A DNA stretch of 64,000 nucleotides from Gammaproteobacteria bacterium (GCA_965277715.1 OZ255836.1:1-64000), one strand, 5' to 3'; counted from the stretch's first letter, positions 18,762-42,566 are shown. The notes: a model not told the origin generated them from the letters alone. Numbers and translations: made by a program.

Positions 18762-18769
18762 TTATTTCA

Positions 18770-18807: not shown

Positions 18808-18925
18808 ATTGCTTTCACAAACAAAAATCAATCATTGATTTACTTAATCTTTTTTTCATAAAGTTACACAAAATGTTGCACAAACGTGTGACTACTGAAA
18901 CTCGTAGTAACTCAGAGACTAAGAT

Positions 18926-20162: not shown

Positions 20163-20180
20163 AAAGAAAGGGACAAATAA

Positions 20181-20465: not shown

Positions 20466-20469
20466 GTTT

Positions 20470-20742
20470 ATGTTTGAAGAATTTATGCTGAGCACTGGAA
20501 ATGACGAAAAAGCATCACACATGGCGCTGTCGATTGTACAAAACTACGTAGAAGACGAAATACGATGTGCAAACGCAAAGCGATATAAAGAGAACGCAAA
20601 AGACTTTATAAGAGAGGTTGAGGCTTTCATCGAAGGGGTGACGTTTGCGATGCCCTCAATTGCGATACTTGATGACATAGAAGTAAGAAATCAGATTGTT
20701 CGATGCATTGTTGATGACTTATCAAAGGTTGAGTTAGATTAA
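20470..20742 (+). CDS. Hypothetical protein (island)
   Basis: 90-aa acidic ORF starting 4 nt after the previous stop. Confidence 0.5.
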   Translation: MFEEFMLSTGNDEKASHMALSIVQNYVEDEIRCANAKRYKENAKDFIREVEAFIEGVTFAMPSIAILDDIEVRNQIVRCIVDDLSKVELD

Positions 20743-22522: not shown

Positions 22523-22804
22523 ATGTCACCGCCTAAATGTAATGTTTTCGTACATACAGCGTATTTTCTGAGGTTCTATTTGAGCAACCAATAAGTGCTC
22601 ATATAATTCCTTTCATACATCAAAGACTTACGTGGAAATGTAAGATAATCACACTTTTCTTACTTATATTAAGTGATGTTTGAGTGTCAGCTTCGCTAAC
22701 ACTACTTGTGCCGTTTGTTCATTCGCATTCGCTCAATCACATACAGCACAGCGTGAACTCCTTTATTTGAATCATTATCTCTTACTCATTTACTAGGAAG
22801 AGCT

Positions 22805-24482: not shown

Positions 24483-24584
24483 GAGCAAGTCAAAGCCTAG
24501 TTTTAGGCAATGACTGTAGTTCTTAACTCATTTACTGAGGATTACACAACTGGGCTTACACAACTCTTAACGAGGAAGGTAGGT

Positions 24585-25902
24585 GGTTCTTCCCCAATTA
24601 TTGTGAAGCCACCGGTTCCCTATCCAGCTTTCCGCAGTAAAACAAGATACTCCGCCGGTAACTTTCAAACGAACGAAATCCTCTTGCATTCGATTTGACT
24701 GTCTGAATTTTTGAATTCAAACCCTCTGACACGGCATTACTTATTGTGTGCTTAAACCATGTCAATATGTTCGGCATGTGCGTTTTTATCATCTTGGCCA
24801 CTTTCTTTATGCTGTCCAATCGGCACCGAATTGCCCACGCATACCATGCGCTAAAGAAACGCTTTGCCCAACCCGCTGTCTTATACGTCCAAAAATCACG
24901 AAACAGTTCTTTTATCGCCCAGGCTCGGGCTGTCAATAACTGATCATGCTTGAGTGACTCAAAGTGCTCGGCTGCTTTGTTAGACAAATTTTCTTCATTT
25001 TTTAACCAGTGATAACGACTCTTTTTCAACCGGCTATCGCCCTGTGACAAAAGGTCTCTATGTTCATCACGACGGACCTGATCCACCGCCTTATTCAGGT
25101 GTTGGCTAATATGAAAACGGTCGTGAACAATCGCACTGTCTGACAGTTTTACCTCAACAGCATTAATGAACGCAGGCCACCTATCAATCGCGACAGCTTT
25201 CACCTGTTCTCGCTGGTTATCCGTCAGCGCAACCTCCAACGCCTCCTCACAGGTTGCCTGGGTGCGATCTTTCACTCCATCCAATACTCGCCCTCCATCG
25301 ATATCATTGATGAGCGTCACATAGTCATGCCCTTTACGGTGGGACTTCTCATCAATACCCAGGTACTCAATTGTCACCAATTCCCGACGCGAAAGTCCCC
25401 GCTCGACAGCGCGGGCTTTGATGGCTTCCACTGCGTTCCAGCTAAGCCCCAGTAACTTACGCGCCTCTTCGACGCTACGTGAGGCTTGCAACACCCTGAT
25501 GGAAAATAATTCAAACAACAACGTAAAACGACTGCGCTTGCTTGCCCAGGGTAACACCATACTTTTAACACCATGCTCCAGACAATTTACTCGGGGAATG
25601 CGACTGTGTAGGCGCGTTTCAAACTGCATAGTATCCAGGTGTCTCCAGGATCGCTCTTGTGAACGGTGATCATAGAACGGACTCACTTCGCCACAGTGCG
25701 AACAAGGGCCGTGGTTGCCGCTAAATGCCAACGAAATGGATACTTTTAACCCTGAAGGGTCTAAATCAACTGATGTCACTGACCAATCATCTGTCAGACC
25801 CAGGAGCTGGCTGTAGTGTTCTTCAAGGCTCGATAGCACCGGAGTCTCTCAATAGCAAAGGGGGATGAAATACTATAACCTCACACAAACCGGGGAGGAA
25901 CC
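24585..25902 (-). mobile_element. ISL3-family element, copy 1 (transposase 24598-25839)
   Basis: GGTTCTTCCCC / GGGGAGGAACC ends; zinc finger, GIDE, VHDRFH and SNAVSEGLN motifs; no target duplication seen. Confidence 0.92.
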
Positions 25903-26206
25903 ACAAGATATACAGCAATCCTTAAACGCGATACGTAGCGAAATTGAACGTGTTGACGACGAAACAAAGTGGGCAGCACTAGAATTGATGCTAGGCACAA
26001 GCAGTAGTGTTGTAGCACTTGCTAAGAAGATGGCTAAACCAGAAACAAAGACGGTGACACGCACTGTAGCTGTTCCCAAGACTAAGATAGTCAAGCAAGA
26101 ACCACAGCAGCAAACGACTGCAAAAGACACTGAACGAACGGACTTTACACCTATTCGTCCACAACCATCGTTACCAAATCAACAAGACGACAGAGAAAAA
26201 CGCTGA
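25903..26206 (+). pseudogene. C-terminal part of an island hypothetical protein, 5' end lost at ISL3
   Basis: The ORF start lies inside ISL3; its last ~45 nt recur at 38344-38388. Confidence 0.5.
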
Positions 26207-26567
26207 AAACCATTCAAAACTGCACGGTTTGTTGCTGTTTAACTGTATGGTTGACACCATAACTGATTGGCATAGTGAGAAGCACTACAAATACTTTCCC
26301 TTACATACAATACGTTACAGCAGACGTAGAAAAAACGTGCTGTTCATCCCCTTAACAAATCTATAATATAAGACTGACACTTAACCGATGGAGGTGTGAG
26401 ATGAAATCTTATGACGAATTGAAAGCTGAAATAGAAGCAATTCAGCAGCAGATGGTTGAAGCTAAGAAGAACGAACGTGCTAATGCATTGAAAGAAGTAA
26501 AGCGTCTTTGCAAAGAGTTTGGTTTTACTGCTGGTATGCTGAAAGGTTCGCTAGCTGAAGGTAGAAA
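26162..26567 (+). repeat. Leader plus mini H-NS-like module, copy 1
   Basis: Aligns over ~400 bp with 38344-38749; contains TATAAT and GGAGGT before the ATG. Confidence 0.9.
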
Positions 26568-26583
26568 ATCTAATAAAAAATAG
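26401..26583 (+). CDS. Mini H-NS-like protein (oligomerisation region only)
   Basis: SYDELKAEIEAIQQQ...ERANALKEVKRLCKEFGFT resembles the N-terminus of HvrA/Bv3F-type H-NS proteins; no TWTGxGRxP DNA-binding motif; strong RBS. Confidence 0.7.
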   Translation: MKSYDELKAEIEAIQQQMVEAKKNERANALKEVKRLCKEFGFTAGMLKGSLAEGRKSNKK

Positions 26584-26637
26584 CCTTCTTTACTTTGCAA
26601 TGATTATAAATTCAGCTGAACAAGGTGGCTACATAAT

Positions 26638-28074
26638 ATGAGTGAAACGCAAGTCATTGCAGTCGATTTGGACGGCACCTTCACATTAACCGATACGTTG
26701 CATGAATCTGTACTTTCGTTAGTTCGGAATAAACCTTATTTATTGTTACTACTACCATTTTGGTTGTTTAAAGGTATTGCTTATCTTAAGCAAAAGGTTG
26801 CGGAGCACTCAGAATTAGATGTAACAACGCTGCCTTACAATCTGCCGCTCATTGATTGGTTGAGAGAAGAAAAGCTTAATGGCAAAAAGATCGTTTTAAG
26901 TACTGCTGCAAATGAAAACGTTGCACAAGCAGTTGTGAACTACTTTGATCTTTTTGATGAATTTATTGCTAGCGACGCAAACACTAATTTAAAAAGTGCT
27001 CATAAGCGAAATGCACTACAAGAAAGGTATGGAGATAAAGGTTACGATTATGCTGGCAATAGCACAGCCGACATTGAGGTTTGGGCTGGCGCTTCTAAGG
27101 CAATTGTCGTCAATGCAAGTGAAGGAGTTTTAAAAAAAGCGTTAAAAGTCGCTTCTACCGCTCGAACATTCCCCTCAGATGATGCTGGCATTACCGATTG
27201 GATAAGGGCATTACGCGTCCATCAATGGCTTAAAAATTTATTATTAGTCGTTCCATTATTAGCAGCACATCAGTTCGGCAACATACAGTCTCTTAGTTCA
27301 CTTATAATTGCTTTTATTTCATTTAGCTTATGTGCGTCTTCAGTCTACATAACAAACGATCTTTTCGATTTAGAAAGTGATCGTAGTCACCCACGCAAGA
27401 GGCATAGACCTTTCGCATCCGCAAAGTTACCAATCGTATATGGTGTAGCTATAGCGCCTTTATTAATAGGTGTAAGTATTGCTTTAGGGGCAATTGTTAG
27501 TTCCGATTTCTTAATTGTATTGTTGCTGTACCTTGTTCTGACAGTAGCATATTCGTTGGTTCTTAAACGTTTGGTGTTGGTGGACTGTTTGACGCTAGCA
27601 ACACTTTACACAGTTCGTATCATTGCTGGCGCTGCTGCAGTATCCGTATCAGTCTCGTTTTGGTTGCTAGCTTTTTCCATTTTTATCTTTTTATCGTTAG
27701 CGCTTGTCAAACGCTATGCAGAGCTTGTAGTTCAGTCGCAAGAAGGCAAAAGTGGCGCACACGGAAGGGGATATCTAGTTTCAGATGCATCCCTATTGCA
27801 GACATTAGGGGTATCGTCTGGTTATATTTCTGCATTGGTCATAGCGTTGTATTTGCGTAGTGAAGACGTAGTGTTATTATATTCACAGCCATTAGCAATC
27901 TGGTTATTGATTCCAATACTTTTGTTTTGGGTAAGTTGGGTTTGGTTAAAATCCGCTAGAGGTGAGATGCACGATGATCCCATCGTTTTTGCGGCTAAGG
28001 ATAAAGCAAGTCTCTTAGTAGCTGCGATTACAGCCATTGTGTTTATATACGCTGCTATTGGAATGGAAATTTGA
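26638..28074 (+). CDS. HAD-like phosphatase fused to UbiA-family polyprenyl-phosphate phosphoribosyltransferase
   Basis: N-terminal VDLDGT; RVHQWLKN, NDLFDLESDRSHPRKRHRPFAS, KRYAE and MHDDP motifs. Confidence 0.88.
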   Translation: MSETQVIAVDLDGTFTLTDTLHESVLSLVRNKPYLLLLLPFWLFKGIAYLKQKVAEHSELDVTTLPYNLPLIDWLREEKLNGKKIVLSTAANENVAQAVVNYFDLFDEFIASDANTNLKSAHKRNALQERYGDKGYDYAGNSTADIEVWAGASKAIVVNASEGVLKKALKVASTARTFPSDDAGITDWIRALRVHQWLKNLLLVVPLLAAHQFGNIQSLSSLIIAFISFSLCASSVYITNDLFDLESDRSHPRKRHRPFASAKLPIVYGVAIAPLLIGVSIALGAIVSSDFLIVLLLYLVLTVAYSLVLKRLVLVDCLTLATLYTVRIIAGAAAVSVSVSFWLLAFSIFIFLSLALVKRYAELVVQSQEGKSGAHGRGYLVSDASLLQTLGVSSGYISALVIALYLRSEDVVLLYSQPLAIWLLIPILLFWVSWVWLKSARGEMHDDPIVFAAKDKASLLVAAITAIVFIYAAIGMEI

Positions 28075-28502
28075 TGACCAAAACAGCAGCTAAAATTGCG
28101 GTGCTTTATACGCTTTTTGCCGTGCTATCAACTGCCATCAATATAGGTTCTCAGATGGTATCAATTTGGGCTTACAACGGGCCTTTTTCTGTCGAGATAT
28201 CTATCTTAGTTGGTACAGCCATGGGGTTACCACTGCGCTACTTTTTAGAAAAACGCTACATATTTACTTTTACGAGCAAGAATCTGGCACATGATGGGAA
28301 GCTGTTCGTTTTTTATAGTGCAATGGGGGTGATAACAACGCTGATTTTCTGGGGCACAGAGTATGCTTTCCACCTTATCTACGATACAGATTTTATGCGA
28401 TACGTAGGTGGTATTGTCGGACTTTCTATAGGTTTCTATGTTAAATACCAGTTGGATAAAAAGTATGTGTTTGTGAATAGTTTCCGTGAGACTGTTAAAT
28501 GA
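28074..28502 (+). CDS. GtrA-family flippase-like protein
   Basis: Small 4-TM protein ending YQLDKKYVF; coupled to the UbiA gene by a TGATG overlap. Confidence 0.85.
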   Translation: MTKTAAKIAVLYTLFAVLSTAINIGSQMVSIWAYNGPFSVEISILVGTAMGLPLRYFLEKRYIFTFTSKNLAHDGKLFVFYSAMGVITTLIFWGTEYAFHLIYDTDFMRYVGGIVGLSIGFYVKYQLDKKYVFVNSFRETVK

Positions 28503-29809
28503 CGTATCTAACCAAAATTAGCGGATGGGGTAATTACCCTCAACAAGAAGCGCAGTTGCTAATGCCGTCTTCATGTTCGTCTTTAACTGCATTAGTAAGG
28601 CAAGAGAAAACCATCATACCTCGAGGCATGGGGCGCAGTTACGGTGATAGTGCTAATGCGTCAAAAGTGCTGCAGACGTCCTACTGCGATCACTTTATTG
28701 AATTTGATGAAGATACTGGCAAGCTTACAGCTGAAGCTGGTATTACTCTAAGAGAAATATTAAAACTGATTGTGCCCAAAGGATGGTTTTTACCAGTAAC
28801 GCCTGGAACTAGTTATGTAACTTTGGGCGGCGCAATAGCAAGTGATGTGCATGGTAAAAATCATCATATCGCTGGTACCTTTGGGCAGCACGTCACATCA
28901 TTATGCATGGTGTTAGGGACGGGCGAAGTTGTAACAGTATCTCCGCAAGACAAGGTTGATTTGTTTCATGCTACATGTGGAGGTATGGGGCTTACTGGCG
29001 TGATTATCAGTGCAACTATTCAACTGCTTCCTATTCGATCTTCCTATATCAACCAAAAGACGATTAAGGCGGATTGCATTGAAGCCGCATGCGAAGCTTT
29101 TGAAGATAATTGTAGCTCCACTTACAGCGTGGCATGGATAGATTGTCTTGCCAAAGGAAAAAGCCTTGGACGGAGTGTTCTTATGCTTGGAGAGCATGCA
29201 GATAAGGGCGAATTGGAAGTGGATATAAAACATCCAGTAGTTGTCCCCTTTAATATCCCATCTGCATTACTTAACAGCATGACAATGAAGGCTTTTAACG
29301 GTGCCTATTGGCACAAGTCGAAACATAACCAAAGTCAGATGACACCGCTGATGCCTTACTTTTATCCGTTAGATGCGGTGGGTGCTTGGAATAAGTTGTA
29401 CGGTAAACATGGGTTTCTACAATTTCAGTGCGTGATACCCAAGGACGATGGCGTTGCAAACATGCGGAAGCTGTTAACAGAGATTTCAAACAGTGGAGAA
29501 GGTTCATTCCTTGCAGTGCTTAAGCAGTTCGGTAAAGCCAATGACAACCTTCTTTCTTTTCCGACTGAAGGTTACACATTAGCTTTAGATTTTAAGTTAA
29601 CCGCATCAACAATAGAGACGTTACGTAGACTCGAAGGGATAGTGGTAGATATGGGTGGAAGGCTTTACTTAACGAAAGATGCTGTAATGCAAGAAGATAC
29701 GTTTAAAACGACATACCCAAATTGGGAAAAATTCGAGTCTGTGCGAGAAAATTATGGTGCCATTGGCAAGTTCAGCTCTTCGCAGTCAAAACGATTGGGA
29801 TTAGCATGA
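28499..29809 (+). CDS. FAD-linked oxidoreductase, DprE1-like
   Basis: RGMGRSYGD, PVTPGT, DVHGKNHH, GGMGLTG, YSVAWID, LAVLKQF and GRLYLTKD motifs. Confidence 0.88.
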   Translation: MTYLTKISGWGNYPQQEAQLLMPSSCSSLTALVRQEKTIIPRGMGRSYGDSANASKVLQTSYCDHFIEFDEDTGKLTAEAGITLREILKLIVPKGWFLPVTPGTSYVTLGGAIASDVHGKNHHIAGTFGQHVTSLCMVLGTGEVVTVSPQDKVDLFHATCGGMGLTGVIISATIQLLPIRSSYINQKTIKADCIEAACEAFEDNCSSTYSVAWIDCLAKGKSLGRSVLMLGEHADKGELEVDIKHPVVVPFNIPSALLNSMTMKAFNGAYWHKSKHNQSQMTPLMPYFYPLDAVGAWNKLYGKHGFLQFQCVIPKDDGVANMRKLLTEISNSGEGSFLAVLKQFGKANDNLLSFPTEGYTLALDFKLTASTIETLRRLEGIVVDMGGRLYLTKDAVMQEDTFKTTYPNWEKFESVRENYGAIGKFSSSQSKRLGLA

Positions 29810-30543
29810 AGAAAGTTTTAATTATTGGTGCAACGTCTGCAATTGCTGAACACTGTTCTAGGATATGGGCTGCTAAGGGTTATGCATTGCGTTTGGTGGC
29901 TAGAAATGAAGATCGTGTTCAAACTATTGCAGATGACTTGAAAGTGCGTGGAGCATCAGAAGTTACGACATATTGTAATGATTTAAACGATATGGAGAAG
30001 TATGATGAACTACTTGATAAAGCAGATGATGCATTGGGTAGCGTAGACATCGTGTTGGTTGCGCACGGTACACTTTCAAATCAAAAAGCGTGTGAACTTA
30101 GTGTCGAAGAAACATTGGCTGAAATACAGACAAATGCGCTTTCTACCGTCAGCTTATTAACGCTAATCGCAAACCGATTTGAGGCGAAAAGAAATGGAAC
30201 TATTTGCGTAATTTCTTCGGTTGCTGGCGATAGAGGAAGAGCTAGTAACTATGTTTACGGATCAGCTAAGGCGATGGTTACATCATTCACTTCTGGTTTA
30301 CGACAGCGACTACACAAGTCTAACGTTGCGGTTGTCACAATAAAGCCTGGATTTGTGGATACACCAATGACTGCTGAGTTTAAAAAGGGATTTCTTTGGG
30401 CTAAGCCTAATGCGGTTGCTGCAGCGATTGTAAAGGCGATTGAGAACAAGAGTGGAGAAGTTTATGTGCCAAGGTTTTGGGGGGTGATAATGATGTTGAT
30501 TACTTCTATTCCAACCAAACTATTTAGGAATCTTTCACTATGA
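29806..30543 (+). CDS. Short-chain reductase, DprE2-like
   Basis: GATSAIA, SSVAGDRGRASNYVYGSAK and KPGFVDTPMT motifs; ATGA overlap. Confidence 0.88.
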   Translation: MKKVLIIGATSAIAEHCSRIWAAKGYALRLVARNEDRVQTIADDLKVRGASEVTTYCNDLNDMEKYDELLDKADDALGSVDIVLVAHGTLSNQKACELSVEETLAEIQTNALSTVSLLTLIANRFEAKRNGTICVISSVAGDRGRASNYVYGSAKAMVTSFTSGLRQRLHKSNVAVVTIKPGFVDTPMTAEFKKGFLWAKPNAVAAAIVKAIENKSGEVYVPRFWGVIMMLITSIPTKLFRNLSL

Positions 30544-31997
30544 CATCCAGTACAGAATTTAAACATGAACTAGCTCCTAAGATTTGGTTTACATTTGCTT
30601 TGGCGCTTATCTTTGGCGGCATATTGGCAACCATTATTTTCGTTTCTACACCCTATTCTTATTGGCTCGATGAGCTCTACAGTGTTACTGCTTCTAATGA
30701 AAATTTTTCATCTCTTTACCTTATCTTACTTGGAGATGTACACCCGCCCCTGTATCAAATTACTTTAAAACTATGGATATCACTTTTTGGAGATAGTGAG
30801 TTTTCTACTCGATGCTTAAGCATGTTGTTTTCAATCATTGCAGCAGCTTACCTTTATCTGAAAACATCAAAGTATGGAAGATTTAACGGTCTAGTAATAA
30901 TTTTGTTTTTTACTACGAATTGGCTTGTCGTATATTATGGAAATGAGGTTCGTTCTTACGCAATGATGTTGTTTTTTGCAACACTTTTAGCTTCAAATCT
31001 TCCCGCAGAAAATGAAAAGCCATCGTTAGTTTTCTATACATCAAGTGTTTTGCTTTCTCTTACACATTATTTTGGATTTTTGATGGCAGGGGTTACTTTA
31101 GCAGTTTATTTCTTTACTCATTTGAGAAGGCCGCAATATATTATTCCTGTCATTTGTGTTGGTATTCTTTGTCTTGTTTGGCCCGTCAATCATGTAATAA
31201 ATGGCGATATACTGAACAAAACAAATGGAAATTTTTGGATAGAGGTTGATGGTTTTTTAGATAGTTTTTCAATAGCTGCCAATGGTTTTATTCCCAAAAC
31301 AGGGATGGTGGGTGGAGTAATATTAATTTTTGGTTTGTTGGTTTCATTGATTACCATTCGACGCAAAGTGAATGTCACGGATACTTGTGATCGTTCTTTT
31401 TTACAAAAAGCATATACGACAACACTCACTTCTCTTATTTTATTAATTTTGGTCGCGATTATTGATGTTTGGAGCCCAATGTCGACTACCAGAAATTACA
31501 TCGTATTGGTGCCATTTGTTAGTATAACCCTAGCCGCTACGGTTTTATGTCTTATGCAGTCATATGCTAATGCTAAAAACTTGTTACTAAGTCTTTTGAT
31601 TGTCTTTTGTTCACTTAGTTTGCTTGCATCTGCTTACAAAATTCATACTAAGTCTATTGGCATTCAAGACTGGCGTGGTGCATCAATGTTTATCGTAAAT
31701 AATCATGATGGAAGGAATGTTTACTTTGTATCACATGGTGAGACGAATAAATGGAAATATCTAATATCAAATTATTATTTGAAATTATTAAGTAACGGCA
31801 CTTTGCACGCCGATCAGTACGTTGTTGGTGACACGATACTAAATAGCCCATCAATGGTTCTTTTTGGTCACTTAAATGACTATGAAGCAGATATGTTAAA
31901 AAAAAATATGGATGCAGTTGGAGCCGTTCAAAGCTATAGTCGAGGTCTTCCAATTGATCAGAATAGAGGTCAAATTGGAGTTTATGTTATAGATTGA
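30540..31997 (+). CDS. GT-C fold membrane glycosyltransferase (putative arabinofuranosyltransferase)
   Basis: SYWLDE...DVHPPLY, EVRSYA and THYFG motifs; about 11 TM helices; ATGA overlap. Confidence 0.75.
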   Translation: MTSSTEFKHELAPKIWFTFALALIFGGILATIIFVSTPYSYWLDELYSVTASNENFSSLYLILLGDVHPPLYQITLKLWISLFGDSEFSTRCLSMLFSIIAAAYLYLKTSKYGRFNGLVIILFFTTNWLVVYYGNEVRSYAMMLFFATLLASNLPAENEKPSLVFYTSSVLLSLTHYFGFLMAGVTLAVYFFTHLRRPQYIIPVICVGILCLVWPVNHVINGDILNKTNGNFWIEVDGFLDSFSIAANGFIPKTGMVGGVILIFGLLVSLITIRRKVNVTDTCDRSFLQKAYTTTLTSLILLILVAIIDVWSPMSTTRNYIVLVPFVSITLAATVLCLMQSYANAKNLLLSLLIVFCSLSLLASAYKIHTKSIGIQDWRGASMFIVNNHDGRNVYFVSHGETNKWKYLISNYYLKLLSNGTLHADQYVVGDTILNSPSMVLFGHLNDYEADMLKKNMDAVGAVQSYSRGLPIDQNRGQIGVYVID

Positions 31998-32164
31998 TTG
32001 GGGCTTTTATCTGCTGTAACGCTAATAATATGTAGTGTAAAGTTTTCTTGATTATATTTTAACTAATGCCTTAACGTTTATATTAAGAAAATTTCGCTGC
32101 AGTAGAAAATTAACTAGTGATGGTTCATTTTAAAAGCTGGCAATGCATAAGGTTCTAGTTGATC

Positions 32165-33310
32165 GGGTATGACCTTAATTTGATGTTGTATTTAAGCGGC
32201 GATAGGCAAACCAAATTGACCGACCTTTTGCCAAAACTGCTGCCATCTGCCAGTACTATAGTTTATGCAGCGTAAACCTAACACGGCTGCCGCCCCTTTT
32301 TCTTTCCACTTCATTGCACAACCACATAACCGTTGTTTCACAATCACCTTGCAAGCCGCTTCCGTTACACCCGAACCAATGGGTAAGCTATTTTTTACAT
32401 TATGAGCATATTTCATCTTATCTTTGTTGTTTGTAAAATAGGTGATAACAGAATTAAGGGCATTTCGTTTCTCTTTCGATAGATCACTGTTATTGCCAAA
32501 AGCCACCATTTCGTTCAGTAACCGCGTTGCCGAACCCACACAGTGCTTTAGCTTATGGCAAGATTGATCAAGCCATTCACTCCTATCTAACGCGTTTCTT
32601 TTTCCATGAAACATCACATGAGCGGCTTTTCCAAGGTATTCGCTCACATGCCAAAAGTCGATTGTTTGGGTATGAGTATGTCGCTTTAAAAAAGGCCAAT
32701 TACATTTCGCACCATCAGCAATTCCTACATAGTGGGCATCAGAGTAGTACTTCTTTACTTTGATGATCGCCTGTTCAAAACGCCCCAAAAAGGTCTCCTT
32801 GCCATACTCAGGCGTAGCCGCCATATAGGTGGTATGTTGTCTATCACCCTTTTTGTCATAAAAAGCAATGGTGCCCACCATTGCTTCACGATAGCCTTCA
32901 TTGCAAAGCAGCATACAAGTACCATCCATCCCTATCGATACCGTTTTCACCGGATAGGCCATCTTGGGCAGCTCATCGTTCCACTGTGCTTCCTTAGCCG
33001 TAACCACCGCACTCACCGCCTCAGCGATATCTTGTATAAAACAACGTGCCACTTTCCTACTATGGTTTTCTTCAAGGTCAGCTCTAACACGCGATGCACC
33101 AAGGTCGGCATATTTTGAAGAGACCATCTTGGCAAATTTGGGGGTCGAGGAAATGATAATACGGGCATTGGCATCAACAGGGCAATACGTCTTTCCCCCT
33201 TTTGAACCTTGATAAACAGGGCGTTGTATATCTACTGCTCCATAAGGCGTTTGATATATTTTTGATTCTTTACCCTTGCTGGTAAATTTAGTGCTGCCCA
33301 CTATTATAGG
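32165..33310 (-). mobile_element. ISKra4-family element, 5'-truncated by an IS4-like element
   Basis: MDG, ADGA, IDFWH and PIGSGVTEAACK...RL motifs; the ORF's apparent start lies in the neighbouring IS. Confidence 0.8.
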
Positions 33311-34861
33311 CATGGGTGTACCACTAGAATCTTGCCAGGAAGCTAATAACGCAATGAATAACACCTGAAAAGAGCCGCCATAAGCTACAAATAGTATTTT
33401 TTATAATATTTGTACTGTTTTTTTATAAACCGATAACAAGCTTTATAATTAATAAAATAAATAAAATTATCTAAAAAAAACACTTGAATTCACCAGCAGA
33501 ATTTTTTTTAAAATACCCATTTAATATCTGATTAAATGGGCAAATTGAATATGAACGAAATGATGACCGTTGAAGAATATATCACCGAACACTGTAAAAT
33601 AAGTATGGAAAAAGCAATTGCTGCTGAACGCTTCCCTTTATGGAAAAGATCATGCGATTCCATTGATGACGTAGCTTTTTCTCGACATGGGTTACTTCAC
33701 TGTATAAGTCTTGTACATAGTGGTCGTCACTATCTACAGGTTACGGATGAAATATACGACGAGACAATTTGTCATTCAAGCTATTTTAACGCATTGAAGT
33801 CGACAAGACGGATGAAGATGATGCAAGCCATGGAAAAGCAAAGCTATCAACTGCAAAGTGAGAAATTATCTTCTTTGGACATTGATTATTTAAAACAATT
33901 TCCTGAACTTGAAGAATATCGAGTAGAAGCAGCTGATGGTCATTTTATACAGCATGCTTGTCACACAGAGAAAAATCGTCAGGGCAACGTCTTCGCAGCA
34001 GGCTTTATTCATGCCTTGAACCTCAGAAATGGACTTCTAAGACCACTTTGTGTCGTGACTAACGGTACTGAACGACACCAGGAAATACCCGCGTTACGTT
34101 CTTATATTGAACAACGTTGTGGCGAAAAAGAGACTTGGCAAAAGCATCTCTATATATACGATAAGGCGGTGACTGATTATGCATGGTGGGAAAAACAAAA
34201 ACAGCATCAGAATTTTATGATTTCAGTACTCAAAGAAAATGCAGTTGCAACTTTTGTCAACTCTATACCCTATGACCAGGGTAGTGAAATTAATACAGGG
34301 GTTGAAGGCTATAGTGTATATAAAAATAAAAAGGTCCAATTTCATATTGTTAAATACCGCGACCCAGAAACAGGTCAATTACATCAATTTATTTCAACGC
34401 TACCAGAGTCAATTAACCAAGGCACTATTGCTATGCTCTATTACAAGCGTTGGACGATAGAAAAATCATTCAACAATAGTAAAAGTGATTTCACCGAAAG
34501 AAAAGCCTGGTCTTCAAACCTGAATGCGCTGAACAGTCAAATGCGTTTTACTGCTATGGCCTATAATATCATGCGTATTTTTGAAGAAACATCAAAAACA
34601 AAGAACCTGGACTGTATTCATCCATCTGATAAAAAATACACTAAAATACACTAAAATGCTTGATAAGAGACAACAAATTGCCCAGAAAAAAGGCGGCTTT
34701 GTTAATCCATTGTTTTTTTACGCTAGAATTACCCGTATATGCTCATTCACCATCCGCTCTCTGCAAAATGCAATAATGACAAGAAAGTCCCTTAGAACTA
34801 TTATGCATAGCTTAGTGAGGCATTTAAAACCTCGACAGCCAGGAATTTTGAAACACTGATG
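33311..34861 (+). mobile_element. IS4-like DDE element, copy 1 (transposase 33536-34859 with a 3' frameshift)
   Basis: CATGGGTGT / ACACTGATG ends; ADGH, YDKA and YYKRWTIEKSF motifs; flanks do not match each other. Confidence 0.8.
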
Positions 34862-34886
34862 ACCATGTTAGTAAAACTGCAATGGT

Positions 34887-36488
34887 CCCTGTGTGTCAAC
34901 CTCACCTCAAGCCACTATGATTTAAGTTAACATCTAAATCAGGGCAGCTATCGAGAGTGAGAACAATGCCAAAACCAATGTTAGATAAACCACAACCTGA
35001 GTCATGTGAGATCAAGCCTGATCGGACACTTGAGAAAAAGACTCGCCGCACTTTTACAGCAGCCTATAAGCTAAAGATGATCAATCAAGCTGATGCTTGC
35101 CAGCATGGACAGCTTGGCGCTTTGCTACGCCGTGAGAAGCTTTACTCCAATCAATTGTCTCAGTGGCGAAGAGAACTGGCCGAAGGCGGTTTGTCAGGGC
35201 TATCAAAAAGCGCGCCCGGCCCTGCACCGCAAATGACGTCTGAGCAGCGCCGGATAGCGCAGCTTGAAAAACAAGTAAACCGTCTGGAAAAACAAATCGC
35301 CCTTAAGGATGACTGTCTGGAACTCCAAAAAAAAGCCTTGGCGATGCTCGACCGATTGAACAGCGGGATCGAGCAGTGAATACCGCGTTGACTGACCGCC
35401 CACCCTCAGTGTCCCAACGTCTGGCTTGTAAGGTATTGGCATTGTCACGGTCACACGTCCGGGCCAAGCAAAGCCGCCGCCATTTCTGTGGCCCTCCCAA
35501 ACCAGCAGGAACCGTGCGAATCACTTGCCATCAGCCACGCCAACTGAGTGAAGAAGAATGCTCTGTGGTATTGAATACGCTCAATAGTGAAGCGTTCTAT
35601 GATCAACCACCGGCGCAGGTTTACCATACCTTGCTGAGTCGCCGTATTTACCTCTGCTCCATCAGCACCATGCACCGCCTGCTGCGTCAGTCCGATCAGT
35701 CGGGGGAACGCCGAAAACAGCGTCCTGGGCAAACCAACGCAGTGCCAAGGCTTTCGGCCAGTCAGCCTAATGAGGTCTGGACATGGGATATTACAAAATT
35801 GGCCACCGTTAAGCGCGGCGTTTATTTATCGCTCTATGTGGTGATGGATTTATTCAGTCGCTACATCGTGGCCTGGATGCTTTCCCATAAAGAAAACAGT
35901 GCACTGGCACAGCAGCTCATTCAGGAGGCCAGTACACGTTACGCGATTAGACCCGACCAGCTGACGCTGCATCAGGATCGAGGGGCACCGATGACCGCAC
36001 ATTGCTACCTTGACTTACTGGGCGAGTTGGCGGTCACCGCTAGCCACAGCAGACCCCGCGTGAGTAATGACAATCCTCATAGTGAAAGCCAATTTCGAAC
36101 ACTGAAGTATCAGCCTGACTACCCGCGTCGCTTTGATAGCTATAGCCATGCCAATGGATGGTGCACTGAGTATATTGATTGGTATAACCATCAGCACTGT
36201 CACAGTGCGTTGGAGGGCTTCACACCTTGTCAGGTGTTTACTGGGCAGTACATACCACTCAGTGAGGTTCGTCAGCAGGCACTCAATGAAAAGTATGTCC
36301 AACATGCAGAGCGATTTGTCAATCAGCGGCCTGTTGTCAGGATGCCGCCTGCGAAGGTCTACATTAATCCCGTGCGCGATGAACTGGGTAATATAGATCA
36401 CGATGCACCCGTCAACTTCCCAACACTAAATCGGGCTAAATATATGGTAACTTGAGTAACTGTGGCTTGAAACAGGTTGACACCTTCC
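34887..36488 (+). mobile_element. IS3-like two-ORF element, type B (orfA 34957-35379, orfB 35376-36455), nested in a type A remnant
   Basis: WTWDIT, HQDRG and DNPHSES motifs; inserted in ...GCAATGGT|TGGGTG of type A orfB with an apparent GGT duplication. Confidence 0.88.
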
Positions 36489-36925
36489 GGTTGGGTGTGA
36501 TACCTTCGTTTAGCAGGCCATCGGTAAGCGATGATAATCCTTATTCAGAAAGTCTGTTTAGAACCTTAAAATACACGCCTGCCTATCCGTCAAAGCCATT
36601 TGATAGTTTAGCCTCTGCCCGAAACTGGGTGCATGGATTTGTGCAATGGTATAACGACTCTCATTGCCATAGCGGCATTGGGTTTGTGACACCAACCTCA
36701 CGTCATAAAGGCGAAGATCACGCGATACTGGCAGCCAGAAAAGCAGTTTATGAACAAGCAAAGGCCAAACACCCTGAACGCTGGAGCCAGGATATTAAAC
36801 ACCTCGAACCGGTATCGGGGGTGTGGTTAAACCCGGAAAAGGAAGGCTTGGCCATGAGACAAAAGCATAATGGAATTGAAAAGCAAGTAGCACAGTAAAA
36901 CGGACAACTACCTTGACAAACACCG
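36489..36925 (+). mobile_element. 3' remnant of IS3-like type A (a further piece lies at 34862-34886)
   Basis: Near-identical to about 24046-24482; ends TGACAAACACCG. Confidence 0.9.
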
Positions 36926-37054
36926 ATGCGTACATACTGCACGTCCTTAATCATATCGGCAGTGCCGATACTCTTGAAAAGATAGAGGCCTTGCTACCTT
37001 GGCATGTCGGTTTGGACATTACCGGGGAATAGAGGCTGATTTAAGGGCGCTTAC
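36926..37054 (+). mobile_element. IS66 terminal fragment
   Basis: Reverse complement of about 42567-42695; ends GGGCGCTTAC. Confidence 0.85.
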
Positions 37055-37322
37055 TCTAAATGGGTATCTACACCGACAATAATTTCACCTTTTTGAAGAG
37101 CGAATTTCATGGGTTCACCTCATTAATTATGAAGCATTACCAATCCCATTCGTTGGACAGGACACTCATGATGCAATACAAAGCTCCTATTAGGTCACAG
37201 ACTCTGGGCCCGGAAACGCTCGGGGAACACCAATACTGATCGACAGGTCAACGCAAAGACAAAAAAGCCAATCCCAGCACAGGTCAGATCAGCAGGGTAT
37301 TCTCAAGCATAGTAGGCTGAGT
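37055..37322 (-). mobile_element. IS110-family remnant: left end, non-coding region and first 18 codons of the recombinase
   Basis: 37110-37055 encodes MKFALQKGEIIVGVDTHL (DEDD RuvC-like GxD start) after a GAGGTG RBS; inserted immediately after the CWD codons of IS3 orfB. Confidence 0.8.
37125..37300 (-). ncRNA. Putative IS110 bridge RNA (target- and donor-binding loops)
   Basis: Two parallel loops, TGACCT[guide]...[guide]G(A/T)CCTGTC; guides match the flanking target (TGCTGGGAT) and the element's own left end (ACTCA). Boundaries are approximate. Confidence 0.7.
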
Positions 37323-38343
37323 ATCCCAGCAATTGCCTTTGCGGCTCATACTTTGAATAATATGGTGTTGTTTTAGTAAGCGGGGATGGTGATTAGAGGC
37401 ATACTGGCAGCCACGATCTGTGTGCCATAGCAGGCCAGCTTTGGGCTTACGCCGCCAAATAGCCATCAGCAATGCGTCATCCACCAGACTGGTTCTCATG
37501 TGTGATTGGATAGACCAACCCACTATTTGACGAGAGAACAGGTCAATCACGACGGCCAGGTAAAGCCAGCCCTGTTGCGTCCAGATGGAGGTAATGTCAC
37601 CAACATAACAGCGGTCAGGTTGTTCAACGGTGAAGGCTCGATTCAGATGATTGGGCGCAATGGGGTTATGGTGTTTGGAGTCTGTTGTCACTTTGAACTT
37701 ACGTTTGGTACGGCAACAAAGCCCTGCTTGTACCATGAGACGGCCTATTCGGCGGCGACTGATACGAACCCCTTCATTGGCAAACAAACGCTTTAAACGC
37801 CGGGTACCATAAGTCCCTCGTCCTTGCTCAAAAAAAACGTGCAGACGTTCTGTCAGCTGTTGATCTTCCTGATAGCGGGCTGTGGTGCATTGTTTTGACC
37901 ACGCATAATAGCCGCTACTGGAAACCGCCATAAAGCGACAAAGAGGTCGAACACCATAGCCAGATTGATGTTGCTGTATCCAGGCGTACTTCACGCTTGT
38001 TCCTTGGCAAAGTACGCGGCCGCCTTTTTTAACAGGTCGCGTTCCTCTTTCAAACGCGCGTTTTCTTTTTTCAACCGTTTGAGTTCATCATATAAGTGCT
38101 CATCGCTGTGGCCACTGCCATCCGCTTTCGGTTGGCTATACTTGCTGATCCAGGTATGCAAAGTATTCTCGTTCACGCCCAGTTCGCGTGCGGTCGCGGC
38201 TATAGGCTGGTCGTTTTTCAGGACTAATTTAACCGCTGACTCTCTAAAATCAGCCGTATAGGGTTGCTTCTCTTTCATTTTCGGTTCCTCGCGTAAACTC
38301 GGTTTACTTCAAGTGAGGGGTCCGAATTAGTGTAGCCACATCA
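37323..38343 (-). mobile_element. Canonical IS3-family element (orfA 37991-38278, orfB truncated at CWD)
   Basis: Left end TGATGTGGC; LKKAAAYFAKE, GDIT, WLYLAVVIDLFSR, HTDRG and GNCWD motifs. Confidence 0.9.
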
Positions 38344-38749
38344 CAACCACCGTTACCAAATCAACAAGACGACAGAGATAAACGTTGAAAACCAGTCGAA
38401 AGTGCATGGTTTGTAGCATTTTGGCTGTATGGTTGACGCTATGACTGATTGGCATAGTGAGACGGTATAGAAATACTTTCCTCTACATACAACGCTTTAC
38501 AGCAGGCGTAGAAAAAACGTGCTGTTCATCCACTTAACAAATCTATAATATAAGACTGACACTTAACCAACGGAGGTGTGAGATGAAATCTTATGACGAG
38601 TTGAAAGCTGAAATGGAAGCAATTCAGCAGCAGATGGTTGAAGCAAAGAAGAACGAACGTGCTAATGCATTGAAAGAGGTAAAGCGTCTTTGCAAAGAGT
38701 TTGGCTTTACTGCTGGGATGCTGAAAGGCGCGCTTGCTGAAGGCAGGAA
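38344..38749 (+). repeat. Leader plus mini H-NS-like module, copy 2
   Basis: Aligns with 26162-26567. Confidence 0.9.
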
Positions 38750-38759
38750 GAAGCAATGA
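38583..38759 (+). CDS. Mini H-NS-like protein, copy 2 (58 aa, absent from the ORF track)
   Basis: MKSYDELKAEMEAIQQQMVEAKKNERANALKEVKRLCKEFGFTAGMLKGALAEGRKKQ; 54 of the first 56 aa identical to copy 1. Confidence 0.75.
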   Translation: MKSYDELKAEMEAIQQQMVEAKKNERANALKEVKRLCKEFGFTAGMLKGALAEGRKKQ

Positions 38760-39715
38760 AATACGAATATTTAAATTTCTTAAAATGCCCAGTAACAGAA
38801 GAAGAGTTAGAGTTAGATGTGTATGAAGAGCATAAGGGAGAGATACTAAGTGGTAAGCTCTACTCGTCAAAATCTGACTTTCCAATTATTAATGGTATTC
38901 CAAGATTCGTGAAAAATGAGGGTTATTCTGATAACTTTGGTTGGCAGTGGAATCATTGGGCGAAAGTTCAATTTGAGTGCGAGAATACTGGTAGACCAAT
39001 GGCTGGTTATACAACAAAAATGTTTAAAGCTATTACTGAATTAACAAGTGAAAAATTACAAGATAAAACGATTCTCGACATTGGTTGTGGTCCGGGTAGG
39101 TTCGTGGATGTCTCCAGAACATTAGGTGCAAAATTAGTCATAGCATTAGATTATTCTACAGCGATTGATGCTGCAAAAGAGAACTTTGAGGACGCTACAG
39201 GAATTTTCTTTGTGCAAGGTGATGCATTAAATCTTCCTTTTAAAGAAGGAGTGTTTGACTTTGTCTACAGCATAGGCGTGCTACATCATACACCTAGCCC
39301 AATTAAAGGTGTTCAAGAAGCTGCTAGAGTATTAAAAAAAAGCGGCGAGTTCGCAATCTCTGTTTATAAAAAAGGGGGCTATTACGACTTTGTCACAGTA
39401 CAAATGTGGCGTATATTGTTCAAATCGTTGTGGCCAATATTTGGACACAGATTACCTTACGTTTACTCTCAATTTTTTGGAAGAACAAATCACTATATTC
39501 GCCGCTATTCACGAATTTTAAGTCTTCCGATTAGGCTAATTTTTCCATCAGTAACTTTGCCAGATGTTAGATGGAGTGTCTTAGATACCTTTGATAGTGT
39601 CACACCATCTTATCAATCTGCTCATACCGTTTATGAAGTCTATTCCTGGTTTAAAAAAATGGATTTTATAGATATAAGAGTCGCTGCTTGGGAGAACATC
39701 ATAGGAAGAAAATAG
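38756..39715 (+). CDS. Class I SAM-dependent methyltransferase with a Trm112-like N-terminus
   Basis: LKCPVT...FPIINGIPRF, ILDIGCGPGRF and FDFVYSIGVLHHT motifs; ATGA overlap with the mini H-NS stop. Confidence 0.85.
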   Translation: MKYEYLNFLKCPVTEEELELDVYEEHKGEILSGKLYSSKSDFPIINGIPRFVKNEGYSDNFGWQWNHWAKVQFECENTGRPMAGYTTKMFKAITELTSEKLQDKTILDIGCGPGRFVDVSRTLGAKLVIALDYSTAIDAAKENFEDATGIFFVQGDALNLPFKEGVFDFVYSIGVLHHTPSPIKGVQEAARVLKKSGEFAISVYKKGGYYDFVTVQMWRILFKSLWPIFGHRLPYVYSQFFGRTNHYIRRYSRILSLPIRLIFPSVTLPDVRWSVLDTFDSVTPSYQSAHTVYEVYSWFKKMDFIDIRVAAWENIIGRK

Positions 39716-39766
39716 GTTGATACAGAATGTTAAATTTTCAGCGATACCTATACTGTGGATGAGTGA

Positions 39767-40064
39767 GTGGTACGACAGCCAAAAAAGAAGCTACGTGGCA
39801 ACTTCCGTAAGTTGATACAAGGACGAATAGAAAAAGCTATTCCACGTCATACACTTACAGCTGAAGAAAAAAGTCGGTTAGCTAAACTTAAAGCTATAGC
39901 TGCAAGATTGAGCGTGGGGAAAACGTGCAAAACCGTCAGCTGCAAACTTGGCTAAGTGAAGACGAGTACGCACAGATAGAAGTTGAGTTGCAAGAACAAC
40001 GGAAACTACGTGAAGAACTAAAAGATAAGCCAAGCGGCTTAAAACGCTATGAAGAAAAGCTTAC
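39767..40064 (+). pseudogene. Frameshifted helical hypothetical protein (island backbone?), truncated by an IS
   Basis: After a frameshift near 39910 it continues RGENVQNRQLQTWLSEDEYAQI...LKRYEEKL up to the IS1595 fragment. Confidence 0.45.
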
Positions 40065-40220: not shown

Positions 40221-42566
40221 TGGAAGTTCAAACTTGATCTGACAGTTACCCAATTTTCAGTGACTGACTGTCAGCTTAAGTTTAGTTCAACAACTTAAGT
40301 TTCCAGATTGATTTACCGTCGATAAGAGTTTCCATCGGGGTTCTACCGCAGCACACTTTATCTTGGTGGGTTCGCTGAGTATTGTACTTGATTAATCATT
40401 CGTCAAGATCAACTTGAAGTTCCTCCATACTTTGATAGATTTTTCGGTTCTTCCCCGATTATTGTGAAGCCACCGGTTCCCTATCCAGCTTTCCGCAGTA
40501 AAACAAGATACTCCGCCGGTAACTTTCAAACGAACGAAATCCTCTTGCATTCGATTTGACTGTCTGAATTTTTGAATTCAAACCCTCTGACACGGCATTA
40601 CTTATTGTGTGCTTAAACCATGTCAATATGTTCGGCATGTGCGTTTTTATCATCTTGGCCACTTTCTTTATGCTGTCCAATCGGCACCGAATTGCCCATG
40701 AATACCACTCGTCAAAGAAACGCTTTGCCCAACCCGCTGTCTTATACGTCCAAAAATCACGAAACAGTTCTTTTATCGCCCAGGCTCGGGCTGTCAATAA
40801 CTGATCATGCTTGAGTGACTCAAAGTGCTCGGCTGCTTTGTCAGACAAATTTTCTTCGTTTTTTAACCAGTGATAACGACTCTTTTTCAACCGGGTATCG
40901 CCCTGTGACAAAAGGTCTCTATGTTTATCACGACGGACCTGATCCACCGCCTTATTCAGGTGTTGGCTAATATGAAAACGGTCGTGAACAATCGCACTGT
41001 CTGACAGTTTTACCTCAACGGCATTAATGAACGCAGGCCACCTATCAATCGCGACAGCTTTCACCTGTTCTCGCTGGTTATCCGTCAGCGCAACCTCCAA
41101 CGCCTCCTCACAAGCTGCCTGGGTGTGATCTTTCACTCCATCCAATACTCGCCCTCCATCGATATCATTGATGAGCGTCACATAGTCATGCCCTTTACGG
41201 TGGGACTTCTCATCAATACCCAGGTACTCAATTGTCACCAATTCCCGACGCGAAAGTCCCCGCTCGACAGCGCGGGCTTTGATGGCTTCCACTGCGTTCC
41301 AGCTAAGTCCCAGTAACTTACGCGCCTCTTCGACGCTACGTGAGGCTTGCAACACCCTGATGGAAAATAATTCAAACAACAACGTAAAACGACTGCGCTT
41401 GCTTGCCCAGGGTAACACCATACTTTTAACACCATGCTCCAGACAATTTACTCGGGGAATGCGACTGTGTAGACGCGTTTCAAACTGCATAGTATCCAGG
41501 TGTCTCCAGGATCGCTCTTGTGAACGGTGATCATAGAACGGACTCACTTCGCCACAGTGCGAACAAGGGCCGTGGTTGCCGCTAAATGCCAACGAAATGG
41601 ATACTTTTAACCCTGAAGGGTCTAAATCAACTGATGTCACTGACCAATCATCTGTCAGACCCAGGAGCTGGCTGTAGTGTTCTTCAAGGCTCGATAGCAC
41701 CGGAGTCTCTCAATAGCAAAGGGAGATGAAATACTATAACCTCACACAAACCGGGGAGGAACCGATTTTTTTACGCAAAGTGATCTGATCAAACTCGTTC
41801 AAAATAGTCTTGTGGAATCGTTCGCAAATACCGTTGGTCTGAGGTGACTTGATCTTGGTTTTAGTGTGTTCAATATCATTCAGAGCCATATAAAGCTGAT
41901 AATCATGTTGATCCGCACGCCCACAATACTCGGTGCCTCTATCGGTCATAATTCGCAGCATAGGAAGGCTGTGTTCTTCGTAGAACGCCAGCACCTGATC
42001 ATTGAGTATATCCGCTGCGGTAATAGGAGTTTTGGTCGTATAGAGTTTGGCATGGGCTACCTTGCTATAAGTATCCACAAACGTTTGTTGATAAACACGA
42101 CCAATGCCCTTAAAGGTGCCAACGTAATACGTATCTTGAGAGCCTAGATACCCTGGATAGGCAGTTTCTATTTCACCACAAACCTCATCATCGTCTTTCT
42201 TTCGCTCCATGGCGGCGACCTGTGATTCGGTCAGAATCAAACCCTCTGAGGCCACTTTTTCACAAAGCGCTTTTAAGCGATGTTTAAAACAGGCTAGACC
42301 ATGCCGTAGCCAGATACCTCGCACACCACTAGTGTGATACAAAAATTCCCCGTTTACGTCATTCATTACTGGTGCGAGTTTGCCCATGAGCGGGTTCTTC
42401 AAGTGCAGAGTCCAACACGACATTTTCAATGCTCGGATCAACACGGTTTTTGAGGGTGGGGCTACGTCGATTACGATCCAATAATGCTTCAACTCCTCCT
42501 TCATCGTTAGCGGCTTTGTAGCGATAAAAGGTATCGCGTGATAAGCCCATCATTTTGCAGGCTTTC
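40221..42566 (-). mobile_element. IS481 copy 2, interrupted by ISL3 and truncated by IS66
   Basis: Reverse complement of about 21072-22093; carries the same nonsense codon and frameshift as copy 1. Confidence 0.9.
40446..41763 (-). mobile_element. ISL3-family element, copy 2 (transposase 40459-41700)
   Basis: Near-identical to copy 1; flanked by GATTTTTC / GATTTTTT target duplication. Confidence 0.93.

Follow-up and report, generated by a model that had tools for sequence, protein, structure and literature searches.

A stretch of 64,000 nucleotides from a Gammaproteobacteria bacterium (GCA_965277715.1 OZ255836.1:1-64000; hereafter the window) contains two copies of a unit of about 400 bp in which a conserved leader precedes a small gene, the mini gene, whose product (the mini protein) is a truncated homologue of H-NS, and behind which unrelated genes, the cargo, stand. 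The reading that we favour, and consider probable, is that this unit is the conserved expression and translational-coupling head of a family of small elements targeting guaA in marine Alpha-, Beta- and Gammaproteobacteria. A preliminary description of the window had seen in the unit a promoter and an H-NS decoy marking a cargo slot; the translational coupling proposed here, the conserved right flank of the slot and the pan-oceanic, cross-class spread of the elements were no part of it.

A repeat search within the window paired 26160-26459 with 38342-38641 at 90% identity (repeat family D4), and direct reading of the sequence carries the likeness on to about 26567 and 38749 (copies 26160-26567 and 38342-38749, ~90% alike). 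Each copy holds the last ~15 codons of an upstream open reading frame (ORF), orf111, then an intergenic stretch of ~190 nt with TATAAT and GGAGGT, and finally the mini gene, which encodes 60 aa in copy 1 and 58 aa in copy 2. After codon 56 (…GRK) both copies run into unrelated DNA: in copy 1 a gap of 54 nt leads to a five-gene operon (26638-31997), and in copy 2 the mini gene overlaps a methyltransferase gene by ATGA. Past codon 56, the mini gene is completed, stop included, by sequence of the cargo side. Copy 2 has no natural boundary at its upstream edge (38342), where an IS3-family insertion cut the backbone, and the likeness of copy 1 to other genomes begins at 25903, adjoining an ISL3 element. 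The repeat, its contents and its end at codon 56 were all recovered as first described, and the 10 synonymous and 2 non-synonymous differences counted then over 56 codons agree with our recount of 9 and 2 over 55 codons (pN/pS 0.056, Nei-Gojobori), codon 56 (AAA/AAG) adding a tenth synonymous change. Because the same unit turned up in 79 loci outside this genome, chance cannot plausibly account for the repeat.

Comparison with these loci (numbered with L below) defines the slot. By blastn, almost every one of them ceases to resemble the window at 26556-26573. Many also contain a further conserved block, equivalent to 39758-40061 of the window, whose distance from the mini gene upstream of it varies. 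This block is the start of p233, a conserved gene of 233 aa, and likeness resumes exactly at its start codon. The slot is bounded on the left by codon ~56 of the mini gene and on the right by the start codon of p233. The p233 product has no relative in the PDB and only unnamed clusters in the Atlas, and its structure model (pLDDT 55) was too poor for a fold search. Tabulation of the neighbours bears out the expected cargo slot with a constant upstream backbone and hypervariable downstream genes: the first genes at 77 junctions fall into 51 clusters, clustering being based on the first ~130 residues. Thirty-four of the 51 clusters were scanned for families, and 23 of 30 scanned representatives have Pfam matches. 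The 30 representatives include nine S-adenosylmethionine (SAM)-dependent methyltransferases, four sugar-type formyltransferases, one N-acetyltransferase of the Antibiotic_NAT family, and MBOAT, pyruvyl-, carbamoyl- and cytidylyl-transferases, a SASA (sialate-type) esterase, DUF4910 and other families; Acyltransferase_3/SGNH proteins (six loci) and type I restriction-modification systems (two loci) were found in addition. Judged by these families, the cargo consists mostly of glycan-modifying enzymes, together with some restriction-modification systems. In Motilimonas (L027:6176-6973) the cargo belongs to the aminoglycoside 3-N-acetyltransferase family (PF02522, E 3e-28) and may equally be a sugar N-acetyltransferase.

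The way in which cargo is joined to the mini gene was scored at 81 junctions. A 4-nt NTGA stop/start overlap was present in 40 and another overlap in 10, which makes 50/81 for all overlaps together; 10 junctions have a gap of at most 25 nt and 13 a gap of 26-150 nt, seven are unclear and one runs off its contig. Through the conserved end codons GAA GGN AGR AAR, overlapped starts have a purine-rich sequence resembling GGAG/AGGA 6-14 nt in front of them. At the other end of the slot, the p233 ATG usually coincides with or adjoins the end of the last cargo gene. In 90 longer relatives, the mini protein is fused in frame to cargo domains.

The mini protein itself is widespread and strongly conserved. 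In a metagenomic protein collection, 2758 of 2787 candidates (33-105 aa) match it at E<=1e-3, and a full HMMER search gave 724 representative clusters. Relatives are 85-98% identical over residues 1-56, and their tails diverge after ...LAEGRK. Over 34 intact mini genes the pooled pN/pS is 0.18 at a pS of 0.52; together with the value for the window pair, this agrees with the purifying selection first suggested from the two copies alone, and the mini peptide is under purifying selection.

Its identity was obtained from plasmids. A tblastn search of 72,556 plasmids matched 35 records, all from Betaproteobacteria (Ralstonia, Burkholderia, Comamonas, Delftia and Eleftheria; best E 2e-4), over residues 1-44 to 1-60 and at 35-52% identity. 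Among the matches listed (25 of 35), 15 are annotated as 'H-NS histone family protein' and 10 bear no annotation. Five of these plasmid proteins (L082-L086; 96-121 aa) were taken as examples, and all continue through a linker into a C-terminal PF00816 DNA-binding domain. Their first ~50 residues, which are 35-52% identical to the mini protein, align with it, including the motif ...ER.NALKEVK.L..EFGF..., and the mini protein ends at the domain boundary, where their linker begins. BLASTP gave 44% identity over 50 aa, and hhalign against Burkholderiales-type H-NS a probability of 98.65% (E 4.9e-16), an E-value that is flattering, the tblastn matches of the query itself having supplied the partner alignment. 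The N terminus of L085 matches positions 36-77 of Pfam Histone_HNS_N, which points to the central dimerisation part of H-NS as the probable counterpart, and neighbouring Atlas clusters (59 aa) have been auto-named H-NS. PF00816 was found neither in the mini proteins of 58-60 aa nor in the 90 longer relatives. By these alignments the mini protein is a truncated homologue of Burkholderiales-type H-NS, restricted to the N-terminal oligomerisation domain, so the truncated H-NS identity given in the preliminary description holds.

The mini gene lies on horizontally acquired DNA, namely a guaA-integrated element with attL, attR and an integrase. Intact members have the order guaA, int411, sYR189, HUH Rep-like gene, DUF6626, orf111, mini gene, cargo, p233, DUF6641, attR, some with two small ORFs between int411 and sYR189, and measure ~7 kb plus cargo. 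Integration at the 3' end of guaA with a duplicated core was found in L001, where a second copy of the guaA end GAGTGGGAGTAG, 7.2 kb further along, delimits the element (attL 2352-2369, attR 9565-9582); guaA stands upstream of the element in most loci. Besides int411, the gene of a tyrosine integrase of 411 aa, the backbone includes sYR189, a constant gene on the opposite strand for a tyrosine recombinase of 189 aa that consists of the catalytic domain only (nearest solved relative XerA, 5hxy, E 2.5e-11), and rep154, whose product of 154 aa has an HxH motif and weakly resembles rolling-circle Rep proteins. In the rep154 copy at L004:4468-4932 (minus strand) the motif reads HIHFFI (HUH-like) and PF23343, a rolling-circle Rep family, is matched weakly (E 0.0047); the protein may replicate the excised element. 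A box of 17-20 nt (…GCGTAGAAAAAACGTGC) was seen in the leader (window 26324-26340 and 38506-38522, L001:5921-5940), with a second copy in L001 at 9452-9471, ~100 nt before the attR core. This box may be an arm site of the integrase, or a regulator site common to the leader and attP.

The 79 loci encoding the mini protein, taken from contigs of one genome per species, belong to Alphaproteobacteria (SAR116, Pelagibacteraceae, IMCC14465, Rhodobacteraceae and others), Betaproteobacteria (HTCC2181, Methylophilaceae, Burkholderiales, Nitrosomonadaceae) and Gammaproteobacteria (Porticoccus, Marinomonas, Cellvibrionaceae, SAR86/SAR92 bins, Thiomicrospira and others), and element DNA is ~85-90% identical across these three classes. 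A few carrier bins come from other phyla, on short contigs only. A megablast search of the unit against E. coli genomes gave no match. Tandem elements occur in three other genomes, Marinomonas (L008/L020), a Pseudomonadales bin (L023/L074) and HTCC2150 (L013). The array at L013:6001-7927 comprises two mini gene and methyltransferase units, joined by the first eight p233 codons fused to the start of the second mini gene; here a deletion between tandem elements left the cassette-array-like order mini-cargoA-(p233 stub)-mini-cargoB. Many genomes have reduced loci, in which guaA leads straight into the final 60-250 nt of the leader, with mini gene and cargo behind. The deletion end points vary between genomes. 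Loss of the mobility genes thus spares head and cargo, and transcription of such loci could gain from read-through out of guaA. Two loci of one assembled chromosome, L016 and L019, ~386 kb apart, share 6168 nt including guaA and backbone at 100% identity and are unrelated from the base directly after codon 56; they are either a true duplication of guaA and element or two strain variants in one assembly.

RNA data were consistent with expression of the head. Leader and mini gene are covered by metatranscriptome contigs (four libraries, four studies), which continue from 26556-26573 into unlike sequence, including an ATGA junction and the cargo of L025/L034. They are compatible with co-transcription of head and cargo, as weak evidence, since such contigs may stem from DNA carry-over and do not amount to a single transcript. 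The head is made up of a leader, in which a -10 box is joined by a strong ribosome-binding site, and the 56-codon gene for the oligomerisation domain, whose last codons and stop come from the cargo. The conserved ...GAA GGN AGR AAR stand at Shine-Dalgarno distance from the cargo start. In the mechanism that we favour, cargo without signals of its own would be transcribed from the head and translated by coupling, as with ORF-11 in integrons. Cassettes would probably be exchanged by homologous recombination in the two conserved flanks, and the likely pay-off would be variation of surface and phage receptors, plus defence.

The closest functional analogue of the head is the Pc promoter, attI1 site and ORF-11 of class 1 integrons. 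There, the leader ORF-11 is reported to cross the insertion point, the cassette supplies its stop, and translation couples to the first cassette (PMC8876359). Both systems have a short leader ORF over the insertion point that takes its stop from the cassette; a fixed promoter driving promoterless cassettes, with coupling to the leader, would be a further parallel, and the anatomy of the present junctions fits it. The element has no IntI-type integrase by the site, the nearest extra recombinase being sYR189, ~2 kb upstream and on the opposite strand; no attC sites were found in it; it offers a single slot, bounded on the right by a conserved gene; its leader encodes a conserved and selected domain of 56 aa, whereas the sequence of the ORF-11 peptide is reported to hardly matter (PMC8876359); and the platform rides on a guaA-targeting element.

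Several observations weigh against this reading. Coupling is not universal, since 13/81 junctions are gapped by 26-150 nt, and copy 1 of the window is among these gapped junctions, with its own AAGGTGG before the ATG. A consensus scan called no promoter in the leader, in which the -10 box is conserved and the -35 box is weak; the fixed promoter ahead of the cargo claimed at the outset is thus a putative one. As for the mini protein, it matched no family in Pfam or NCBIfam (PF22470 fails at E<=0.1 to 1), sequence and profile searches of the PDB gave nothing relevant, and the AlphaFold model of the monomer is one long helix (pLDDT 88) and uninformative. Finally, PF00816 was detected in only 2/10 carrier genomes (Marinomonas and Motilimonas) and in none of the other eight, some of which are incomplete bins or single cells, and 11/42 scored loci have a premature stop in the mini gene.

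These stops bear on a first alternative, which we regard as quite possible though short of probable: that the mini gene acts chiefly as RNA or DNA, a launch pad for coupling and an arm for homology, and that its protein serves the mobile life of the element and not cargo expression, for example by pairing with a partner encoded by the element or a phage, or by regulating excision or replication. Premature stops were found in 12-13 of 53 near-full-length mini genes. Nine lie at Q15, Q16 or Q17, directly before Met18 (L010, L015, L017, L021, L032, L034, L037, L050 and L074), one at codon 10 (E10, before Met11; L028) and one at codon 6 (L030). In the stop-bearing alleles the rest of the gene stays conserved and the cargo is retained. 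The clustering is explained in part by mutation bias, because Q15-Q17 and E10 are the only transition-accessible nonsense sites in the gene; and because the stops adjoin an internal ATG, re-initiation, and hence cargo coupling, could persist. When 11 mini genes with short flanks, a fusion or belonging to the window itself were set aside, broken alleles were present in 0/12 full elements and 11/30 reduced loci (Fisher p 0.018, a test that ignores shared ancestry, L016/L019 being identical upstream and L013 being counted twice). This confinement to reduced loci, which have lost the integrase, suggests that the mini protein serves the element while mobile, or is useful in some hosts only, and that cargo expression would depend on the head as such. 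The broken alleles may reflect relaxed selection, selection against the full-length protein, or termination and re-initiation. A pN/pS comparison did not separate broken from intact alleles, and most of their divergence probably predates the stops. The L013 array, which shows recombination via the mini gene, and the small weight of the peptide sequence of ORF-11 also agree with this alternative. What speaks against it is that the pN/pS given above marks an amino-acid sequence under selection, unlike ORF-11, and that the partner is hypothetical.

A second alternative, which we hold to be doubtful, is the one put forward in the preliminary description, in which the mini protein is an H-NST-like decoy that forms mixed oligomers with host H-NS and lifts the silencing of AT-rich cargo. 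H-NST, a truncated H-NS on genomic islands of pathogenic E. coli, is reported to counter H-NS (PMC3897749, PMC7074111), and it is the closest protein analogue of the mini protein, from another H-NS lineage: both are small, encoded on islands and made of the oligomerisation part without a DNA-binding domain. The mini protein differs in resembling the N terminus of Burkholderiales-type and not enterobacterial H-NS, in having 56 conserved residues and heading an operon with swappable cargo, and in that most of its hosts show no H-NS; H-NST also has reported activity. The homology to a real H-NS oligomerisation domain, the purifying selection, the AT-rich cargo of the window (GC 0.35-0.42 in cargo 1 versus ~0.50-0.53 in its chromosome) and the intact mini gene in 12/12 mobility-competent elements all fit a decoy. 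The hosts do not. Both genomes with a PF00816 protein have H-NS of the enterobacterial/Vibrio type, unlike the Burkholderiales type of the mini protein; no second protein with the mini domain was found in 5/5 carriers, in which the profile finds element copies only; intact alleles persist in hosts without detectable H-NS (L001, L004, L009, L013 and L016); and the 11 reduced loci with a broken gene have kept their cargo. A complex prediction for residues 1-90 of Marinomonas H-NS with the Marinomonas mini protein gave a score of 0.01, was run without controls, and speaks neither for nor against binding. The decoy claim is weakened by these results, which speak against de-silencing of cargo as a general mechanism, one that does not fit most carriers. 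Our best guess, itself a tentative one, is that the mini protein may interfere with H-NS-type silencers where such exist.

We also considered an integron-like, site-specific capture, in which sYR189 would insert circular cassettes at an NTGA core at the end of the mini gene, and find it improbable. Its attractions are the constant presence in the backbone of this second recombinase, reduced to a catalytic domain; NTGA at both junctions, in 40/81 on the left and at the ATGA/TTGA/GTGA start of p233 on the right; a leader ORF that crosses the junction and takes its stop from the cassette, as in ORF-11; and the joining of 51 unrelated first genes within ~15 nt. Against these, the reconstructed empty junction contained no inverted-repeat core (arms >=7 nt, <=1 mismatch, spacer 4-12; folded-strand sites lie outside this test), the right junctions showed no shared element before the p233 ATG, no attC-like conserved element was found at cassette ends, and none of the 79 loci has an empty slot. 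The sharp edges may just reflect two selected coding flanks without a spacer, and a 4-nt repeat that doubles as a stop/start overlap is weak evidence. Lastly, although the region is crowded with insertion sequence (IS) copies that are themselves repeat families (D1, D2, D3 and D5), a functionless local duplication or IS-mediated rearrangement of this genome is refuted by the presence of the unit, with the same end point, in 79 outside loci and by the synonymous bias of the few differences between the two copies.

GIsul2 is a guaA-targeting element found on plasmids. It has been described as a tyrosine-integrase island that targets the 3' end of guaA (PMC9376610), a target shared with the present element, from which it differs in size, backbone and cargo. 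Its integrase does not seem closely related to int411, as judged from plasmid records with no GIsul2 sequence compared: tblastn of int411 against 72,556 such records (E<=1e-10) gave one match, in Rhizobium, at 28.5% identity. Tycheposons are reportedly small integrase-bearing marine elements with cargo. Similar to the present element in size and habitat are also the VEIMEs, described as small integrase-bearing phage satellites with cargo that abound in marine bacterioplankton (PMC9618062); the text of that report mentions neither guaA, GMP synthase nor H-NS. A Pfam scan of the backbone found no primase, terminase or AlpA gene. The mini protein was confirmed in 0/31 candidate stretches of IMG/VR viral contigs, absence from one collection being weak evidence; its tblastn against phages gave a single weak and irrelevant match, and PHROGs only weak unnamed ones (best phrog_10171, E 1.5e-4). 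We found no description of the guaA element in the open-access literature and bioRxiv main texts; the supplementary gene tables on VEIMEs might include it. The combination is that of a truncated island H-NS with a leader-coupled cassette platform, both of kinds already known.

In the window, guaA is followed by a tandem of two such elements, each of them decayed and interrupted by IS copies (Table 1), as had been proposed. Element remnants found by blastn cover 18717-20869, 22107-22754, 25903-26573, 38342-38770 and 39758-40061, the first being 85-90% identical to elements in L001, L004 and L008. The int411 remnant has two in-frame stops and then loses its frame. The counterparts of orf94 and orf91 in L004 belong to no Pfam family, and orf111 to none in Pfam or NCBIfam. 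The sYR189 gene, recovered by tblastn in pieces at 20737 (24% of its length) and 22076 (78%), is split by an IS at ~20870-22106 (transposase ORF 21134-22030, plus strand, Pfam rve; blastn break 20869/22107). The IS3 and ISL3 elements at 22822-25839 stand in place of the Rep-like and DUF6626 part of the backbone, and tblastn found neither rep154 nor DUF6626 in the window. The guaA core occurs once in the window, with no second copy that could be an attR. Cargo 1 would likely make a glycan modification of the polyprenyl-phospho-arabinose type; the label of arabinosylation operon is reasonable for its five genes, yet both Dpr matches fall under the equivalog cut-offs. The methyltransferase of cargo 2 has an N-terminal Trm112-like zinc ribbon. 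Rfam at gathering thresholds gave no match over 18000-42000, and a tRNA scan found none.

Table 1. Features of the two guaA-associated elements in the window (positions from its first nucleotide)
Feature	Position	Strand	Basis or remark
guaA (GMP synthase)	17187-18761	+	Pfam GATase, GMP_synt_C
Attachment core GAGTGGGAGTAG (3' end of guaA)	18750-18761	+	12 nt; repeated at attL and attR in L001
int411, tyrosine integrase pseudogene	18926-20162	+	tblastn, 93% identity to L004 integrase
orf94, small backbone ORF	20181-20465	+	tblastn, 66% identity to L004 ORF
orf91, small backbone ORF	20470-20742	+	tblastn, 72% identity to L004 ORF
sYR189, short Xer-like tyrosine recombinase, split by IS	20737-22522	-	tblastn pieces; Pfam Phage_integrase 22070-22522
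IS3-family element	22822-24452	+	Pfam HTH_Tnp_1/rve
ISL3-family element	24598-25839	-	Pfam DDE_Tnp_ISL3
orf111, backbone gene	25865-26206	+	tblastn, 92% identity over 90% of length
Conserved leader, copy 1	26207-26400	+	TATAAT 26363-26368; GGAGGT just 5' of ATG
Mini H-NS gene, copy 1	26401-26583	+	60 aa; conserved through codon 56
Cargo 1: HAD-UbiA phosphoribosyltransferase	26638-28074	+	Pfam, NCBIfam
Cargo 1: GtrA	28071-28502	+	Pfam, NCBIfam
Cargo 1: DprE1-like oxidase	28499-29809	+	NCBIfam, below equivalog cut-off
Cargo 1: DprE2-like SDR (reductase)	29722-30543	+	NCBIfam, below equivalog cut-off
Cargo 1: GT-C/PMT_2 glycosyltransferase	30540-31997	+	Pfam, NCBIfam
IS remnant cluster, cutting off backbone of second element	33536-38341		Pfam; repeat families D1, D2, D5
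IS remnant: DDE_Tnp_1	33536-34654		
IS remnant: IS3 family	34957-36898		
IS remnant: IS3 family (transposase ORFs)	37284-38278	-	
orf111 3' stub and conserved leader, copy 2	38342-38582	+	Repeat search, blastn
Mini H-NS gene, copy 2	38583-38759	+	58 aa; TGA stop overlaps cargo ATG (ATGA)
Cargo 2: SAM-dependent methyltransferase	38756-39715	+	Pfam Methyltransf_11 (E 2.5e-21), NCBIfam
p233 remnant, frameshifted and truncated	39758-40062	+	tblastn at 39782 and 39904; blastn 39758-40061 to many loci
ISL3 element behind p233 remnant	40459-41700	-	Pfam

Three further features of the window were noted. An ORF of 390 aa without a Pfam family lies directly behind cargo 1 (32192-33364, minus strand) and may either belong to the cargo or be unconnected with it. 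Upstream of the island, 3518-4381 lies in a patch of AT-rich DNA and encodes a fused nucleotidyltransferase-HEPN protein (Polbeta/NTP_transf_2 and HEPN) of toxin-antitoxin or defence type. Finally, a very long ORF (>1543 aa) at 59270-64000 on the minus strand runs off the window.

Surface glycans vary greatly from strain to strain in marine bacterioplankton, among them SAR11, SAR116, OM43, Roseobacter relatives and Porticoccaceae. Phages are thought to drive this variety, for which few vehicles are known in streamlined cells. The element described here delivers single glycan-modifying genes or restriction-modification systems to a fixed slot next to an essential gene, where they would be ready for expression. 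In its widest form, to which we give little credence, it would be a pan-oceanic, cross-class and non-integron cassette platform with an NTGA capture point in a truncated H-NS gene that gives promoter, Shine-Dalgarno sequence and coupling; its protein would travel with the element from SAR11 to Marinomonas and modulate either silencers or a partner from phage or host, and by trading glycan enzymes and restriction-modification systems the platform would be a main vehicle of phage-receptor diversification at sea. The interest of the family rests on its cross-class oceanic spread, its ORF-precise junctions and its orphan H-NS oligomerisation domain. Its conserved head and p233 offer two primer or probe sites for cassette diversity in seawater DNA. 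It is also a system for asking how foreign genes get expressed at once in very different hosts via a coupling head, how ORF-precise cassette junctions arise without integron machinery, and which role an H-NS oligomerisation domain can play by itself where the cell has no H-NS.

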